From Naegleria gruberi (Eukaryota): a DNA stretch of 64,000 bases. The notes beneath the pieces were generated by a model. It was not told the origin of the DNA. It worked only from the letters and a program-made list of their open reading frames with translations, and did no database searches. The first letter of the stretch is position 1, and every line of letters starts with the position of its first letter. Positions 30,175-38,525 of this stretch are shown here, piece by piece. A program made the position numbers and the translations under genes. The stretch lies in the NCBI GenBank assembly GCA_000004985.1, contig GG738851.1; one strand, given 5' to 3'.

Positions 30175-31940
30175 ATGGATCCAATTAGCCAAGAAACTCA
30201 AGCAGAGATTTCTTCGGATGCTGTTGCTACTGATAATGTTACTATAAATGAGGAGCAGCCTCAACTTGTAGTGAGTGTTCCACCAACAATAACAATCAGT
30301 ACAGAGAATAACGATGTTGAGGTTATTAGTAACAACAATGAGCAAGGAAGCGTACCGAGTTCTCCAACGCTACTAGTAGAAGTCTCATCTTCGTCAAACA
30401 CTCCAACAATTTCAACTTCTGATGCTATGAACGTTTTGGTTGCAACTTCCACAGGCAACATGGCCTCAATTGCATCATCAATGACGAGACAACTAACAGA
30501 GAAAAGTATAGGTAAGATTTTTATTGAATTTGAAATCCTTAATCTTCTTTATCAGAGGAAGATTCAAATGAAGCAACTTGTGTGGATATGGAAACATCTA
30601 CATTCGTTGATGATTATTCATCTGGCGATGAAGATGATCAAAACAAAAAGAAAAAGAAAGATGATCCTAAAAAGTTTAACCTTGACGGAATTAATACAAT
30701 GAAAGGAATCATAATGGAAGAATGGAAAAAGTTTGGTTTTGCTGCTCAAACAAAACGAGATGCTGAAATGTGGGCACAAACACTTCAATTTCCTGGAGTT
30801 CCCGAAAGAGGAGAGGTTCTTAGAAGATTATTTTCTGTGTTTAGATGGGGTGGATTGTGTTTTAGACATAAGGCAATTGCATTTGATAAAAAGAAGAGTG
30901 ATGACGATTCAGATTTTGTTTGGAAAAATTGGTATGATGTTGGATGGCCTATTTGTACAGCTATTTCTCATGGTGGTAGAGTAATTATTCAATTACCTAA
31001 GAAAACAGGATCCGACAGAACATATGATTATTCATTTTGGAATTGGATCATTACAGGATCTAAAACAGGGGATGTTGCAAAGCATGTGACAACAGGAACA
31101 TCTGGAGACCATTGTATAAAGCGAGGAAAGATAATATTCAAGAGATTGAGTGCTACGCATGGTATTGATTTTGAAGAAAATGAGTTACCTCTCATGGATG
31201 GAACAAGGAAGGTATTAATTGAACAAAAAACCACAGGTTTCAGTTTGAGAGACACCAAAATGTTAAGATCAGTTGAATATACATTGAAACATCACAGACA
31301 TTGGGGAATGAATATTCCAATTGGTGGTGAAGGGCAAACCTTACTTACAGGAAGTAAATCTTATGCAAATGGATCCAATGGCCATTTATACATTTATCAC
31401 ATGGCACCAAAAACTGACTCTTATGGTGGTATTATGCTTGGGTTAGAAGGAAGCGAATATGGTAAATATGATATGTGTGGTGAATACCACGGTGTGAGTG
31501 CCAAGTCAAGTGCATTCTCACCCACACTCGGTTTCAAATGGCATTCCAAGGAACATCTAGATTTGACAACAGTGAAAGGCCCAGGTAAATATGATTGTAT
31601 GTTTGTGGATTTGTCATATGGTTGGGATTTTATTGTTGAAAAGTATGAAAACGAATGGAAGGATGATATGGTCAAGCAAACATCATTACCTAATCCAAAC
31701 CATCCACAGTTTACAGAAATTTCAACAAAACTCAATCTTTCTCCAAAATTTATTTCATCCATTGTAAATTTGAGAAACACTGAGAGAGGAAGAAAATGGA
31801 AATCACTTGTAGACAAACGATTAGAAAAGACAAGTAATAATTTTAAGGACAAAATTACAATATCAAAGAAGAAAACCAAGTTTTACAATTTTACAACAAC
31901 CCGAGCAGCAATCTCCTTCGCCAATTTATACGGGCAATAA
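30175..31940 (+). CDS. hypothetical protein: Thr/Ser-rich N-terminus plus ~380-aa Trp/His/Gly-rich globular C-terminal domain; exons 30175..30511 and 30556..31940, intron 30512..30555 (GTAAGA..ATCAG, 44 nt)
   Basis: Splicing joins ..LTEKSIG to EEDSNEATCVDMETSTF in frame. No known family recognised (segments such as WGMNIPIGGEGQ, HLYIYHMAPKTDSYGG, CGEYHGVS). Confidence 0.55.
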
Positions 31941-32755: not shown

Positions 32756-34560
32756 TTATTTGTCTGTCTTTTGCACAATAATTGGAGTACCTACTTGTAC
32801 AACTACAAAGGCATGGATTGGTTTTGTAGAAAATTTCTTATTCTCCTTCAACAATTTAACATAATCACTAAGTTGTGTTTTTGCTTTTTCAACAACATGA
32901 CTAACTATTTTCATTTCCTCCTTATCTGTTCCAAAGAGATATGTTTCATTTAATGGTAGATTAAGTAATTCATTTTCGAATAATTCAGAAAGTCCTTCAT
33001 TAATTCTTTCAACAGTTTTGGGACGTTTCCATTTTCCACTCAATACATCAAACATAGTTCTCCTATATTGCTCTATCAATATCTTTGATTTCGATTTAGT
33101 TCTCTGTTTTAAAACATATTTCAATTGTTTATCATTCCAGGTTAAACCATTAGGACTAATTCTTTTAAGTTCAAATATTATCACATCTTTATCACTTTCC
33201 AATATTATATCAGTTCTTTTATCAAAATCATTATCTACTTTTTGATTCTCACTGAAATGTTGTTCATTGATTCCACTTTCTGTTTTAACTTGGAAATAAG
33301 AGTTTCCATGTTTATAGTAAGCTTGTAAAACACAATAAATTGCATGTTGAAGTGCTCCCTCTGAAAAAGAATTATCATAATGGATATACCTTTCTCCAAT
33401 AATATTTTCCAATATCTTTTTTACAATGTCCACAGAAGGATGTTTGTAACGTAATATCATGTCATTTTGAGTTAGTGAAACAATATTTTCCAGTTCATAA
33501 AAATATTGTTTTTGTGCTATTTCATTGGGAATTAATAATGTTTTACAGAATGAATTATCTTCTTCTGAAAATGTAAGCATTCCATGGTAATACATGAAGG
33601 ATAATGTATTATCCCATACTTGTTTTACACTTAACTCAGTCGTTGGTGGTTCTATAATCTCACGAAGTTTGAAAGAACTAACAATGGAAGTATTAACTTG
33701 AACAAAATTTGTGGCTAAAAGTTGTTGAATGATAGGAGTAGAAACTGAAGTTGTTGCAAGAGTAGCAAAAACATTCTCACTAATTTTTGTGTTATTATCT
33801 ATCATATTGATGAGAGGAATATCTTTACCTTCCATAACATCTGATCTGAATTGATTATTACTCAAAAGCTTATCCATAAAATACATTGACAGAGTGGGAT
33901 TGAAGAGGGGTTGAGATGATCCTGGAAAATGATAACCTTTATAGAATCTTTTCATTATTGAGATTGCATTATTATTCTGATGATCATTTAAAATACCTAT
34001 ATTATTCAAGGCCAGTCTCAAATCACTTTCAGTGAAACCAACTAAATCACCAAACATTTCCCAATCTGCTTTTTCCTTTCAACATTGCTGTTACCAAGTT
34101 ATCAAATGACACAAGAGCATCGGATGAAATAATTTGTTGAATATTACCTTCCATATTATGAATGGTTAAAAATCTTGTGATATCCGAATTGATTTTGTTG
34201 AATAACGCTTGTTTGATATCTTCAGGAGAACCACTAACATCAATTGAAAAATGTGTATGATTCTCAGGTTTGCCAATCCACAAACCACCAAACAATTCAT
34301 CAAATTGATCTTTCTTGTTAATATCATAATATGACGTCAACATTGATAATAACAATGACTTTCCCCATCTCGGGGGACGAACAAAGAATAATTGTTTACC
34401 ACTACTTTCCAACAAAGGAATCAAATGAGTCTTATCAACATAGAATTGTTTGCTTCTTCTGATGGACGCAAAGTCTGCTTCACCATACGGAAAATAGGGA
34501 ACAGTAACATCAATTAGATTGTTATTTAAATTTAGAATTGTTGAAAATTGTCTGAGTTGA
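32756..34560 (-). pseudogene. bacterial-type AAA-ATPase-like (PF09820-like) plus C-terminal PD-(D/E)XK nuclease (DUF1703-like) gene, apparently disrupted
   Basis: FYVDKTHLIPLLESSGKQLFFVRPPRWGKSLLLSMLTSYYD..DELFGGLWIG is the hallmark of the predicted-AAA-ATPase N-domain. The C-terminus DIILESDKDVIIFELK is a D..E.K PD-(D/E)XK core. There is a +1 frame change at an A5 run near 34050, and the frame extends upstream to a TAA with no in-frame ATG. Confidence 0.6.
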
Positions 34561-34689
34561 TGGTTAGTGAATATAGACGGAGTAGTACAAGGTTGATGAT
34601 TGAATTTTATATTGTTGATGAGTTGGTGATCACGGATAAAATTTAGATGTGATGAAAAGGATGTTTTATGAGGAGTATGTTAAAAAAAA

Positions 34690-34910
34690 ATTTGTTTTGC
34701 GGAGCAAACAAGGCGTGTGTTGCGCATTTTTTTCAACAATGTACCAAAGGTACTGTGGGCAAACTCGTTAAATATTTGCATCGATGTGCAAATCTGTCAA
34801 GTCGACACAAACCACCTTCCGAGGCAATGGATTCCTACGAGATTTACCAGGCAGCAGTAACTGTCCTGGGTTTACATTGGGAGTGGAGAGTAAGGTAAAT
34901 GGATGCTCAC
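34690..34910. ncRNA. GC/CpG-rich intergenic island, candidate small non-coding RNA (strand and identity unknown)
   Basis: ~220 bp with many CG dinucleotides (gcggagc, ggcgtgtgttgcgc, catcgatg, gtcgac, ccgagg) set in ~75% AT intergenic DNA. Contains local stems such as ACCAGG..CCTGGT. No credible ORF. Confidence 0.25.
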
Positions 34911-35209: not shown

Positions 35210-38200
35210 ATGTCTAACTTTATTAGAAGGTTTTTGCTCAATTCTGGAGGTGGTGATGGAGAAAATCAAAATCAAAATACATCATCAGATAATACCACAC
35301 CATCAAATGATAGTAATACTACAACCAATAACACAACTACTCAACCTACACTTCCAACAACAACACCAACAACACAAACAAATCAAAGCCCTAGTAATGT
35401 TGACAGTAATGCTGGATTGTCTGCAGATGAAATCCGTTTGAGGAGATTAAATAGGCTTGGGGGCACAGTCACTCCAATTACAACACCTATCAAGACTTCT
35501 TCACCTCCTAAATCTAATGCTATGGATACACGAGATGATTTTGTACCACCATCAAAAACTCTCACTCCTATTAGTACTCCAAAGGCTACAACTCCAACAT
35601 CAGCAAAATCACCATCAAGTAATCTAAACAAAATGGATACATCCGATGGTACGTATTTTTCAAATTTATTTTAAATTTTACACTGATCAATTTATTACAA
35701 AATTGAAATCAGATATTATCAAGAAGAATTTGAGTTTGGAGGAAAGATTTGTTCATGATACAATTTCCAAGATTTTCAGAGTCACTTTGACTCCAAGTAA
35801 GGATAGTACTTTGTACTACTTGAAAGACTATGCATCTGAATTATCTAACTCACAATTTACTGAAAATGATGTGGAATCTATTTTGATTGAACGTATTTCT
35901 AAAGGAGGCTTCGAACATAGTGGTTCAAAAACTATTTTCTCCTTCTTGATGGAATGCTTTGAACGATCAGAAAGAGAATTAGACAATAAGAAAAAGGAAG
36001 AACAAATCAAAGTCATCAAAAATATCAAGGAAATTATTACTTCATATTGTGGTATTGTTTTGACAGATCCAGATATGTTCGATCAACCAGAGCATATTTC
36101 TAGACAAGGGTCTTTACAACTTGTTGATTATGTTTGTGGAGATATTCCAGGCACATTCCTTCAAGATTTTGTCACAAGATTTGCTGATTCTCCAAAAACT
36201 TTGGAAACAATCTTTGCTCCCGTCTTCAATGATATTTCAACTAGATTTTTGAAAATTACACTTGTTGATGACTATTCTCCATATATTTATGGATTTAAGC
36301 GACTCACTGCTTTGAGAGAACTTTCTATTGTACTTGTAAATCATCCACTCTTTTTACCAAGAAGAAAGAATGGTAATTCTGTCGAATTTGAAACTATTTT
36401 GGGACCTCTTTTCAAAATTACTGCCTATTACGATCAACCAAAAGTTGGTGAACAATACTTTAGAAATGATATTGAGAGATTGACAAATCAAGATGTTGCT
36501 AACATCAAAGATCAAATCAGATCCAAGATTAATATGTACCATACATCATTACAGCAAATTTTCATGAATCTTTTGAAACCAAAAGAAACCAGAGACAAAA
36601 CAATTGAATGGTTATCACTGAGTGTGGACTATAATTCAGCAAGAGCAAAAATGCAAGCAGATCCTCATGTTATCTCAACGGAAGGCTTTATGACAAACTT
36701 GTGTGCTATATTATTGAAGCTTTCCCAACCATTTACTAAAATTGAAGATAGCAAGATACCTGCTACTGCCAAAATTCAAGTTGACTATCCTATGATGAAT
36801 AAGGATGTAAACTTCAAATCAGATGCAAGATTTAATATGGCAGAAAAAGAATCTGAAGAGTACTACAAAACCAAACCTAACACAGATTTTAGTTTTGTAA
36901 GCTCGTGCTTCTTCCTTACATATAGAGCCCTTCACCTTGGCTATTTAGTTACACAGGAAAAGTATCAAAACGCCATAAAAAGACTGCAAGATGTTCAAAG
37001 ACATTATGGTGCAACTCCAAGTCCAGAAGTAAGAAAAGAAATTGATTTATATTACATTATCAGATGGACAGCTGAAACTCATCTTTTCGATCAAAATTTA
37101 CTTGAGGCAATGCTAGATTATTATAGATTCTGTAGCATATGGCTTATAAAGTTGGCAAATCCTACGAATACCGCCAATTATCCTTTGACTCCTCTTGTAG
37201 CAGGTAACACTCACACTACATTCCCTTCTGAGCCTTCAAAGGACTTGGCTGCCATGCCAGAATTCTTCCTAGAAGATATAGTGACATGTTTCACTTTCTT
37301 ATTGAGATACAAGCCTGAATCCTTATCTAGTACTGTTCTTACCGAGACATTCGACATGTTTGCTATGTTCCTCTATCATTCAAAATATGTGAAAAACAGA
37401 TATTTGTTGGCAAAACTACCAGAATTATATTGTGCTATGCTTCCTGCTGGATCAAATGATTTTATTCCACCAATTCTTGTTGAATATTTACCAAACCACA
37501 AATTCTCTCAACTTAGCCTTACCTCAGGTTTGCTGAAATTATATATTGATATTGAACATGAGAGCTCGTTCTATGAAAAATTCAACTACCGTTATTATAT
37601 CTCTTTGCTTTTGAAGAGCTTATGGAATAGTACTCCTTACAAGACTTCATTCATTCAAATCACAAATAAGACGGATGACACAAGCTTTATGAAATTCTTC
37701 AACTTGTTGCTTAACGATGCCATTTACTTATTGGACGAAAGTTTGAAAGATCTTCAAAAAATCAAAGAAATTCAAACTGTTATGGACACTCCAACTGAAT
37801 GGAATGCATTAACACAACAAGAAAAAACTGACAAAACCACAGCTCTTGCACAATATGAGCGTATGGTCAAATCATACATGCTTTTAGCTAATGAAACTGT
37901 TCATATGTTAAGCTACCTTTCTAAAGATATTCCAAAACCTTTCCTTCGTCCTGAGATGATTGACAGAGTTGCTTCTATGCTTAATTACTTCCTTGTAGAG
38001 TTGGCTGGACCTAAGTGCCAAAACTTGAAGGTTAAAGATCCTGAGAAATATTCATTTAGTGCAAAGTACCTATTGACTGAAATTACTGATACTTACATCC
38101 ACTTCTCTCCATTTGATGAATTTGCTACTGCAGTTGCCAAAGATGAACGATCATTCAAAGCAGACGTATTCGAAAGAGTTGTTGCTATTTTGAGAAAAAT

Positions 38201-38525
38201 AGGTAAAACTGAGGATTACGTAAAGAAATTCGATTCATTTGCTTTAAAGGCATTGGAGGAGGCAAAGAAGTTAATTGACCTAGATGTGGATTACAGTGAT
38301 GCACCAGATGAATTTTTGGATCCTCTTACCTATACCATTATGGAAGATCCAGTTCTTTTACCTGTATCTAAGATTTACATTGATAGGGCAACTATTGAAA
38401 GACATTTACTCAATGATCCAAAAGATCCTTTTAATCGTTCTCCTCTCTCTGTAGACATGTTAGTTCCAGCTCCAGAATTCAAGAAACAAATTATGGAATG
38501 GAAAGCATCCAAAAGAAAACATTAA
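35210..38525 (+). CDS. UFD2: ubiquitin conjugation factor E4 (UFD2/UBE4 U-box); exons 35210..35648 and 35713..38525, intron 35649..35712 (GTACGT..AATCAG, 64 nt)
   Basis: The Ufd2 core region is collinear with yeast Ufd2/UBE4B. The C-terminal U-box is [44 protein letters not shown]. Splicing joins ..MDTSD to [26 protein letters not shown]. Confidence 0.85.

Follow-up and report, generated by a model that had tools for sequence, protein, structure and literature searches.

A 64,000-nucleotide stretch of the Naegleria gruberi genome (contig GG738851.1 of assembly GCA_000004985.1), referred to below as the window, contains on its minus strand, at 34727-32756, one copy of a DUF1703-type gene, i.e. 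an AAA-ATPase_like domain (PF09820) followed by a PD-(D/E)XK nuclease. Neither a full-length protein nor a working ATPase can be made from this copy. It keeps the Walker A motif, the lid, the helical region and the nuclease motifs, whereas the Walker B motif and the rest of the ATPase core are gone and the two modules no longer share one frame. The reading that we prefer, with modest confidence, is that of a young relic: a heterolobosean DUF1703-type gene of which this copy was put out of action recently. In a protein database search, the conceptually joined protein gave 100% identity to XP_002681211 (NAEGRDRAFT_63616, UniProt D2V469), a 376-amino acid N. gruberi entry whose public label is only "predicted protein" and which covers 33886-32756. 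The gene identifiers of NAEGRDRAFT_63616 were looked for in the literature, and no paper in the collection searched mentions them. To judge from its domains, the intact protein would most likely have been an ATP-controlled DNA nuclease.

Four lesions in the N-terminal half

The lesions were mapped by tblastn and by alignment with three relatives: N. lovaniensis C9374_000909 (P0002, 744 amino acids; contig PYSW02000011.1), which is the closest intact relative, a protein of N. fowleri (P0003, 670 amino acids) and N. gruberi NAEGRDRAFT_78045 (P0005, 705 amino acids). The full-length collinear alignment took in 22 eukaryotic and bacterial members. Intact members of the family are single-exon proteins of about 650–750 amino acids. 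When P0002 was searched against the window with tblastn, two collinear segments were obtained in different frames, residues 1-233 corresponding to 34727-34062 and residues 317-740 to 34060-32762, the latter at 69% identity. The original prediction, a reading made from the letters of the window, had already placed the N-terminal part and the main body in different frames, and this is what is found: the N-terminal frame ends at a TGA at 34049-34047 (..SRLGNVW, then the stop), and an open reading frame (ORF) of 433 codons begins at the ATG at 34057.

The ancestral start codon is kept at 34727-34725, where MRNTRLVCSAKQIFF (MRNTRL..) aligns with MRKTKQLAS in P0002 and MRKSNLFVA in P0003; the C-terminal end is also the same as in P0002. 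The first lesion is an in-frame TAA at 34682-34680, codon 16 from this ATG. The N-terminal frame had been described as running up to this TAA without any ATG. Indeed, there is none between the TAA and the domain, and the first in-frame ATG after the TAA comes only beyond Walker A, but the in-frame ATG at 34727, 15 codons upstream of the TAA, had been overlooked, and it aligns with the N. lovaniensis and N. fowleri starts. Removal of the TAA by an intron was considered and rejected: the sole GT between the ATG and the TAA is a phase-0 donor, there is no in-frame AG acceptor, and the relatives are single-exon genes. Since the P0002 gene itself is a single exon (PYSW02000011.1, 10001-12235), no missing exon needs to be invoked. 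The 77 codons between the ancestral start and the ATPase domain (34727-34497), which the TAA interrupts, encode an S/T-rich extension with 7 R+K versus 2 D+E, a composition that resembles that of an organelle targeting sequence.

The second lesion, missed by the original prediction, is an in-frame deletion of 33 nucleotides. Eleven codons are gone after KPENHTH, near 34251/34250 (between ENHTH and FS, 34265-34245), as seen from the tblastn gap, from columns 270-285 of alignment A1 and from DNA comparison; with them the conserved strand ..N.YHVLxLD has disappeared. The third lesion is a 249-nucleotide deletion. The 83 codons corresponding to P0002 residues 234-316 are missing between KGKSRL, which ends at 34062, and EMFGDLVGFTE, which starts at 34060. 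The lost block comprises the Walker B motif LIDEYD, the sensor-1 motif FITGITP and ..SGYNV..NIS, all of them at least 90% conserved in the family, and a search for it elsewhere in the window did not find it. In N. lovaniensis, direct repeats AAATTG and CAATTG flank the block that is deleted here, and the junction in the window reads AGATTGGGAAATG. Such short direct repeats around the deleted block fit a slippage-type or microhomology-type deletion. The fourth lesion is a single additional G at 34061, at the same junction (34062-34060), and it causes the frameshift.

The frame switch had been attributed to a run of five A residues (34075-34071). Since the loss of 83 codons and the extra G share one junction, with homology reaching 34062 and resuming at 34060, the frameshift belongs to the deletion junction and not to the A run. 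In addition, the S-R-L that follows the A run still matches the family (KSKL, NLKL or GAKL), so the run is not where the break lies. Deletion of one A or one G does produce a single frame again, but the repaired proteins still match positions 1-119 of the 201 positions of PF09820 only. Removal of one base thus restores no working ATPase.

The remnant of the AAA-ATPase_like domain (YFPYG ... KGKSRL) occupies 34496-34062. Its match to PF09820 has an E-value of 2e-24 (86.9 bits versus a cutoff of 26.1), with profile positions 1-119 mapping to 34490-34140. The motif string on which the prediction had been based is real, as PYGEADFASIRRSKQFYVDKT...RPPRWGKSLLLSML..YY...ELFGGLWI is encoded on the minus strand at 34490-34270, and the frame ending at the TGA also encodes ...PYFPYGEADFASIRRSKQFYVDKTHLIPLLESSGKQLFFVRPPRWGKSLLLSMLTSYYDINKKDQFDELFGGLWIG.... 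The modified Walker A motif RPPRWGKS is kept at 34379-34356, and its R, P, G and K are invariant in alignment A1. The Walker B motif DEYD, whose D, E, Y and D are each at least 90% conserved in a 59-sequence alignment, falls within the block absent at 34062/34060. The ATPase core is therefore incomplete: PF09820 positions 120-201 are unmatched, and both the 11-codon strand ..YHVLxLD and the sensor-1 region ..FITGITP.. are gone. The remnant has no internal stop over 142 codons.

A putative PD-(D/E)XK nuclease in the C-terminal half

The 433-codon ORF (34057-32756) is intact and encodes an AAA+ lid, a middle region that is winged-helix-like and helical, and the nuclease, whose core lies at 33361-32873. 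It contains RTDIILESDKDVIIFELKR, and the C-terminal core string singled out by the original prediction, TDIILESDKDVIIFELK, is present at 33214-33164. The lid or "sensor-2" region is recognizable by QPLFNP at 33913-33896 and by the conserved G7, G41, F44, N53 and F60.

The same prediction expected that the repaired protein would match both AAA-ATPase_like and PDDEXK_9 (PF08011) in Pfam. The first of these matches was obtained; for PF08011 there was no match at E<=1, whether the ORF or the repaired fusion was searched. Several lines of evidence nevertheless support the assignment of the C-terminal half as a PD-(D/E)XK domain, as far as sequence and a predicted model allow. On the relatives, PF08011 gave sub-threshold hits in the right place (E 0.003 for P0003 and 0.012 for P0005), and a clear one on the bacterial member P0065 (7e-21). 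Profile-profile comparison of the eukaryotic C-terminal region with the bacterial region that bears PF08011 gave 99% probability and an E-value of 2e-18. The full-length alignment is collinear to the last strand with bacterial members carrying both PF09820 and PF08011. Near-invariant positions of the ORF in the 59-sequence alignment include E233, D283, E296 and Q395, and K298 completes an ExK. E, D, ExK and Q are the four DUF1703 motifs defined by Knizewski et al. in 2007 (PMC1913061), and the C-terminal part of the ORF has all four together with a restriction-endonuclease-like fold. AlphaFold2 modelled the 433-amino acid ORF with a predicted local distance difference test score (pLDDT) of 85.8 and a predicted template modelling score (pTM) of 0.83; the model shows a helical bundle and a winged-helix-like fold in the middle region. 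Foldseek alone gave no significant match for this model.

Young relic or retained nuclease gene

Selective constraint was estimated against N. lovaniensis. Over 142 codons of the ATPase remnant, the ratio of non-synonymous to synonymous substitution rates (dN/dS) was 0.27; over 423 codons of the C-terminal ORF it was 0.28, and dS ranged from 0.7 to 1.0. In relative-rate counts using P0003 and P0005 as outgroups, limited to columns where both outgroups agree, replacements specific to the window copy and to N. lovaniensis were balanced, 5 versus 5 in the remnant and 12 versus 11 in the ORF. Highly conserved columns are kept at 26/27 and 22/23. The copy therefore carries disabling lesions that no splicing rescues, yet displays no sign of relaxed constraint, such as a dN/dS near 1 or an excess of lineage-specific change. 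As a unitary, non-processed pseudogene, it is thus compatible only with very recent inactivation, and because both halves were constrained over nearly their whole history, the lesions are recent. The gene had been described as broken and decaying. Broken it is, but the low dN/dS and the balanced rates speak against prolonged decay, and "decaying" is right only insofar as decay has just begun.

In the course of events that we propose, the ancestral gene would have encoded a basic N-terminal extension, an AAA+/STAND-like ATPase (RPxRWGKS, DEYD), a lid/winged-helix/helical region and a PD-(D/E)XK nuclease. The ATPase half, as the sequence directly shows, was wrecked by the TAA at codon 16, the 33-nucleotide deletion, the 249-nucleotide deletion and the extra G. 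The larger deletion, at the ends of which the relative has short ATTG repeats, took out everything from Walker B through sensor-1. The nuclease half is still open as a 433-codon ORF, most likely owing to the very young age of the damage and not to a retained job. That the ORF survives through recency rather than function is also the weakest step of this proposal.

Several observations weigh against it. The damage is confined to the stretch upstream of the ATG at 34057, and the 1.3-kb ORF downstream has been spared all four lesions; such clustering would be mildly improbable under uniform neutral decay, with a rough estimate of p ~0.03-0.08 provided that the lesions arose independently. The opening Met of the ORF occurs in this copy alone, the relatives having E, I or Q instead. 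The ORF also folds confidently alone in the AlphaFold2 prediction. Lesion clustering, the unique Met and the stand-alone fold favour a retained ATPase-less nuclease gene. According to this explanation, the ATPase half was lost while the 433-codon ORF continues to be expressed as an independent PD-(D/E)XK nuclease without ATPase or targeting sequence, translation starting from an ATG newly formed right at the deletion junction. The conservation of the catalytic residues E233, D283, E296/K298 and Q395, the absence of excess lineage-specific substitutions in the ORF, and a public gene model that spans most of it point in the same direction. Nuclease-only DUF1703 relatives have moreover been reported in Cardinium, although the authors suspected artefactual truncation at scaffold borders (PMC6387759). 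We consider a retained nuclease possible but rather doubtful. The dead ATPase remnant is conserved just as well as the ORF in dN/dS, in balance of replacements and in freedom from stops, and with a dead remnant so well preserved, recency by itself would lead one to expect an intact ORF. A single complex event may account for the deletions together with the extra G, which would weaken the clustering argument, and the public model is an ab initio prediction that starts at another Met (33886). We therefore lean towards a young relic.

A third explanation is that an error of sequencing or assembly, or else a defective allele, conceals a true gene that is intact and full-length at this place. It would account for the lack of substitutional decay in the remnant, and two of the lesions are in suspect positions, the extra G being within a GGG run and the TAA abutting a run of nine T. 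However, the 33- and 249-nucleotide lesions are clean multi-codon deletions, impossible from homopolymer errors. A T run one base longer or shorter does not open the frame, which then meets another stop. The missing block is absent from the rest of the window, and a collection of 5.8 billion proteins contains no nearly identical protein that is intact, the next best match having 61% identity and coming from another species. The two clean deletions and the lack of an intact near-identical database protein make an artefact quite improbable.

Relatives and origin of the gene copy

The host had been taken for an amoebozoan; N. gruberi belongs to the Heterolobosea, within Discoba. A BLASTP-type search for nearest neighbours, which the original prediction had recommended, returned Naegleria proteins as the best database matches to the joined protein: N. 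lovaniensis (61%), N. fowleri and N. gruberi 78045. Intact relatives are present in N. lovaniensis (three), N. fowleri, N. gruberi (NAEGRDRAFT_78045) and Willaertia magna, and, outside Heterolobosea, in one choanoflagellate and one aphelid. Trees were built by neighbour-joining (NJ), a distance-based method, with bootstrap. The Heterolobosea are monophyletic with 99.5% bootstrap, and all 19 eukaryote-like sequences are separated from the bacterial ones by one bipartition (71%, or 85.5% when the choanoflagellate group is left out). These 19 sequences come from Naegleria, Willaertia, the choanoflagellate Savillea parva, the aphelid Amoeboaphelidium, MMETSP transcripts and metagenomic proteins. 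The window copy itself was assigned to this group not through the tree but by its 69-71% amino acid identity to P0002 in both halves and by an insertion of about 35 amino acids between motifs III and IV, which in the full-length alignment is common to these two only. Unlike the window copy, P0002 is intact, matching positions 1-199 of the 201 of PF09820.

In the N. fowleri protein P0003, which looks like a mosaic, the N-terminal half is of the type seen in the window copy and P0002 (61% identical to the remnant in the window), whereas the C-terminal half is of the P0005 type, with 45% identity to the window ORF and without the insertion of about 35 amino acids. Recombination or gene conversion among paralogues may explain this.

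A basic, acid-poor and S/T-rich N-terminal extension of 16-109 amino acids was found in 17/17 members of the eukaryote clade that were examined, versus a median of 2 residues ahead of the PYG motif in bacterial members. The 77-codon extension of the window copy is of the eukaryote-clade type. From its composition, this extension is probably an organelle (mitochondrial) targeting sequence. The extensions, together with the grouping of these sequences in one NJ clade, suggest an organelle-targeted ATPase-nuclease family in diverse protists, so far unstudied.

The family as a whole is mostly prokaryotic, with more than 535 confirmed loci in many phyla of a prokaryotic genome set, and DUF1703 has been reported as overwhelmingly bacterial (PMC1913061; PMC6387759). 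The original prediction was correct on this point, but it named Bacteroidetes and Firmicutes, whereas the best bacterial matches are from Desulfobacteraceae, Desulfamplus, Thiothrix and Methylococcaceae (28-48% identity), with many Bacteroidales and Clostridia too. It had also viewed the gene as horizontally acquired or lineage-restricted. As a recent event this is not supported, given the intact relatives in other Naegleria species, Willaertia, the choanoflagellate and the aphelid, within one eukaryote-like clade. A recent transfer from Bacteroidetes or Firmicutes into this genome, with the gene now being lost, could be argued from the bacterial predominance of the family, from another bacterial-type domain (Ntox11) in a neighbouring gene and from flanks that share no synteny with the N. 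lovaniensis locus within +-10 kb (uninformative at such divergence), but it is very improbable in view of the Naegleria and Willaertia relatives, the monophyly of Heterolobosea, the single eukaryote-like clade, the insertion shared only with P0002, the clade-typical N-terminal extension, the identity of the best bacterial matches and a local GC content of 29-32%, which equals the host background in this AT-rich window (about 32% GC).

A broader scenario, which we advance tentatively and place slightly on the doubtful side, concerns the whole eukaryotic DUF1703 clade, unstudied so far, in Heterolobosea, a choanoflagellate, an aphelid and marine or metagenomic protists. It could derive from a single ancient bacterial acquisition that gained organelle (probably mitochondrial) targeting and would act as an ATP-controlled nuclease on organelle DNA. 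One N. gruberi paralogue would just have lost its ATPase and targeting sequence, and may persist as a free nuclease.

Surroundings of the gene copy

The original prediction had noted an adjacent CpG-rich island. The patch at 34700-34900, over and upstream of the ancestral start codon, is indeed the richest 200 nucleotides of the window in GC and CpG (GC 0.45 versus 0.32; CpG observed/expected 0.80 versus 0.37). It may not belong to the gene. Three short hairpins are present in it, and its fold z-scores were -1.76 and -0.06. A U1 small nuclear RNA or another structured RNA was considered, as U1-like strings were seen by eye (AUUUACCUUAC, AUCCAUUGCCUCGGA and GAAGGUGGUUU), and was rejected: Rfam returned nothing on the patch at gathering score or E<=10. 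A search for transfer RNA in the patch found none. A plus-strand ORF of 76 amino acids (34668-34898) was also discarded as a small gene, having no Pfam match and no homologue among 1.84 billion representative proteins. The patch was looked for upstream of the N. lovaniensis gene and as a repeat within the window, and was found in neither.

Neighbouring genes are eukaryotic. On the plus strand at 35210-38525 lies a UFD2/E4 ubiquitin ligase gene (Ufd2P_core and U-box), which consists of two overlapping ORFs, 35210-35674 and 35646-38525; their overlap points to either a short intron or a change of frame around 35650. The gene immediately downstream of the disrupted copy, at 30582-31940 on the plus strand, is a 452-amino acid ORF that matches PF15521 (Ntox11, "novel toxin 11") with an E-value of 2.7e-36. 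The Ntox11 domain was described from bacterial polymorphic toxin systems. A gene of this type thus adjoins the DUF1703 relic in a Naegleria chromosome. The N. lovaniensis relative is located (PYSW02000011.1, 1-22235) among RGS, trypsin, periplasmic-binding-protein and guanylate-cyclase genes, and has no flanking gene in common with the N. gruberi locus.

Comparison with known systems

DUF1703 was defined by Knizewski et al. in 2007 as the association of AAA-ATPase_like (PF09820) with PDDEXK_9 (PF08011) (PMC1913061). Although known since then, the family has never been characterised biochemically and has no known function in any organism; we found no biochemical data on any DUF1703 member in the literature searched. 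The window copy has the domain order of the family, a Walker A motif RPPRWGKS comparable to the family's RPRRFGKS (PMC1913061), and a protein collinear end to end with bacterial members. It differs from them in the absence of Walker B (DEYD), the sensor-1 region and one core strand, in a frame broken by the TAA at 34682-34680 and the frameshift at 34061, and in a C-terminal half that the Pfam model PF08011 does not reach. The insertion of about 35 amino acids, in this copy and P0002, and the additional N-terminal extension, in the eukaryote-like clade, are further departures from the described family.

Among proteins of known structure, a resemblance was seen with the Wolbachia cytoplasmic-incompatibility factors CinB and CidB (PDB 7esz_A and 7esy_B), which likewise have PD-(D/E)XK nuclease-type domains. 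The PDB sequence search gave nothing useful with P0002 or alignment A2, and CinB only with alignment A1, as a weak profile match (E 2e-5). In contrast to DUF1703 proteins, CinB/CidB are without an AAA-ATPase_like module; identity is 10-12%, and their partner-protein context is not shared. The likeness is one of fold level and is no evidence of shared function.

In combining an ATPase switch with a nuclease effector, DUF1703 proteins are also comparable to STAND/AAA+ NTPase fusions with a restriction-endonuclease fold, such as Mrr-NACHT and the archaeal ATPase PF01637 (PDB 2fna). The N-terminal domain of DUF1703 was linked to PF01637 by Knizewski et al. (PMC1913061). However, the relation is distant and at fold level only, and the NTPase core of the window copy is missing. 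ATPases of the PF09820 type have been listed among phage-defence components, in RADAR RdrA and others (PMC10952713). No meaningful match was obtained between the proteins studied here and the PADLOC phage-defence models.

Implications

The apparent bacterial gene in an amoebozoan is a young truncated paralogue of a family resident in Heterolobosea. In the reading preferred here it is a recent relic of an ordinary kind, and no newly imported bacterial gene. What is new is that the gene model NAEGRDRAFT_63616 is the tail of a freshly disrupted gene, which is a small advance; its annotation should indicate that only the C-terminal part of a disrupted gene is covered. Of greater interest, as a by-product, is the eukaryote-like clade with the targeting-like extension. 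If true, DUF1703 would have one eukaryote-like clade, all members of which carry a targeting-like N-terminal extension. As no function is known for DUF1703 anywhere, a putative organelle-targeted version in tractable protists would offer a place to start testing.

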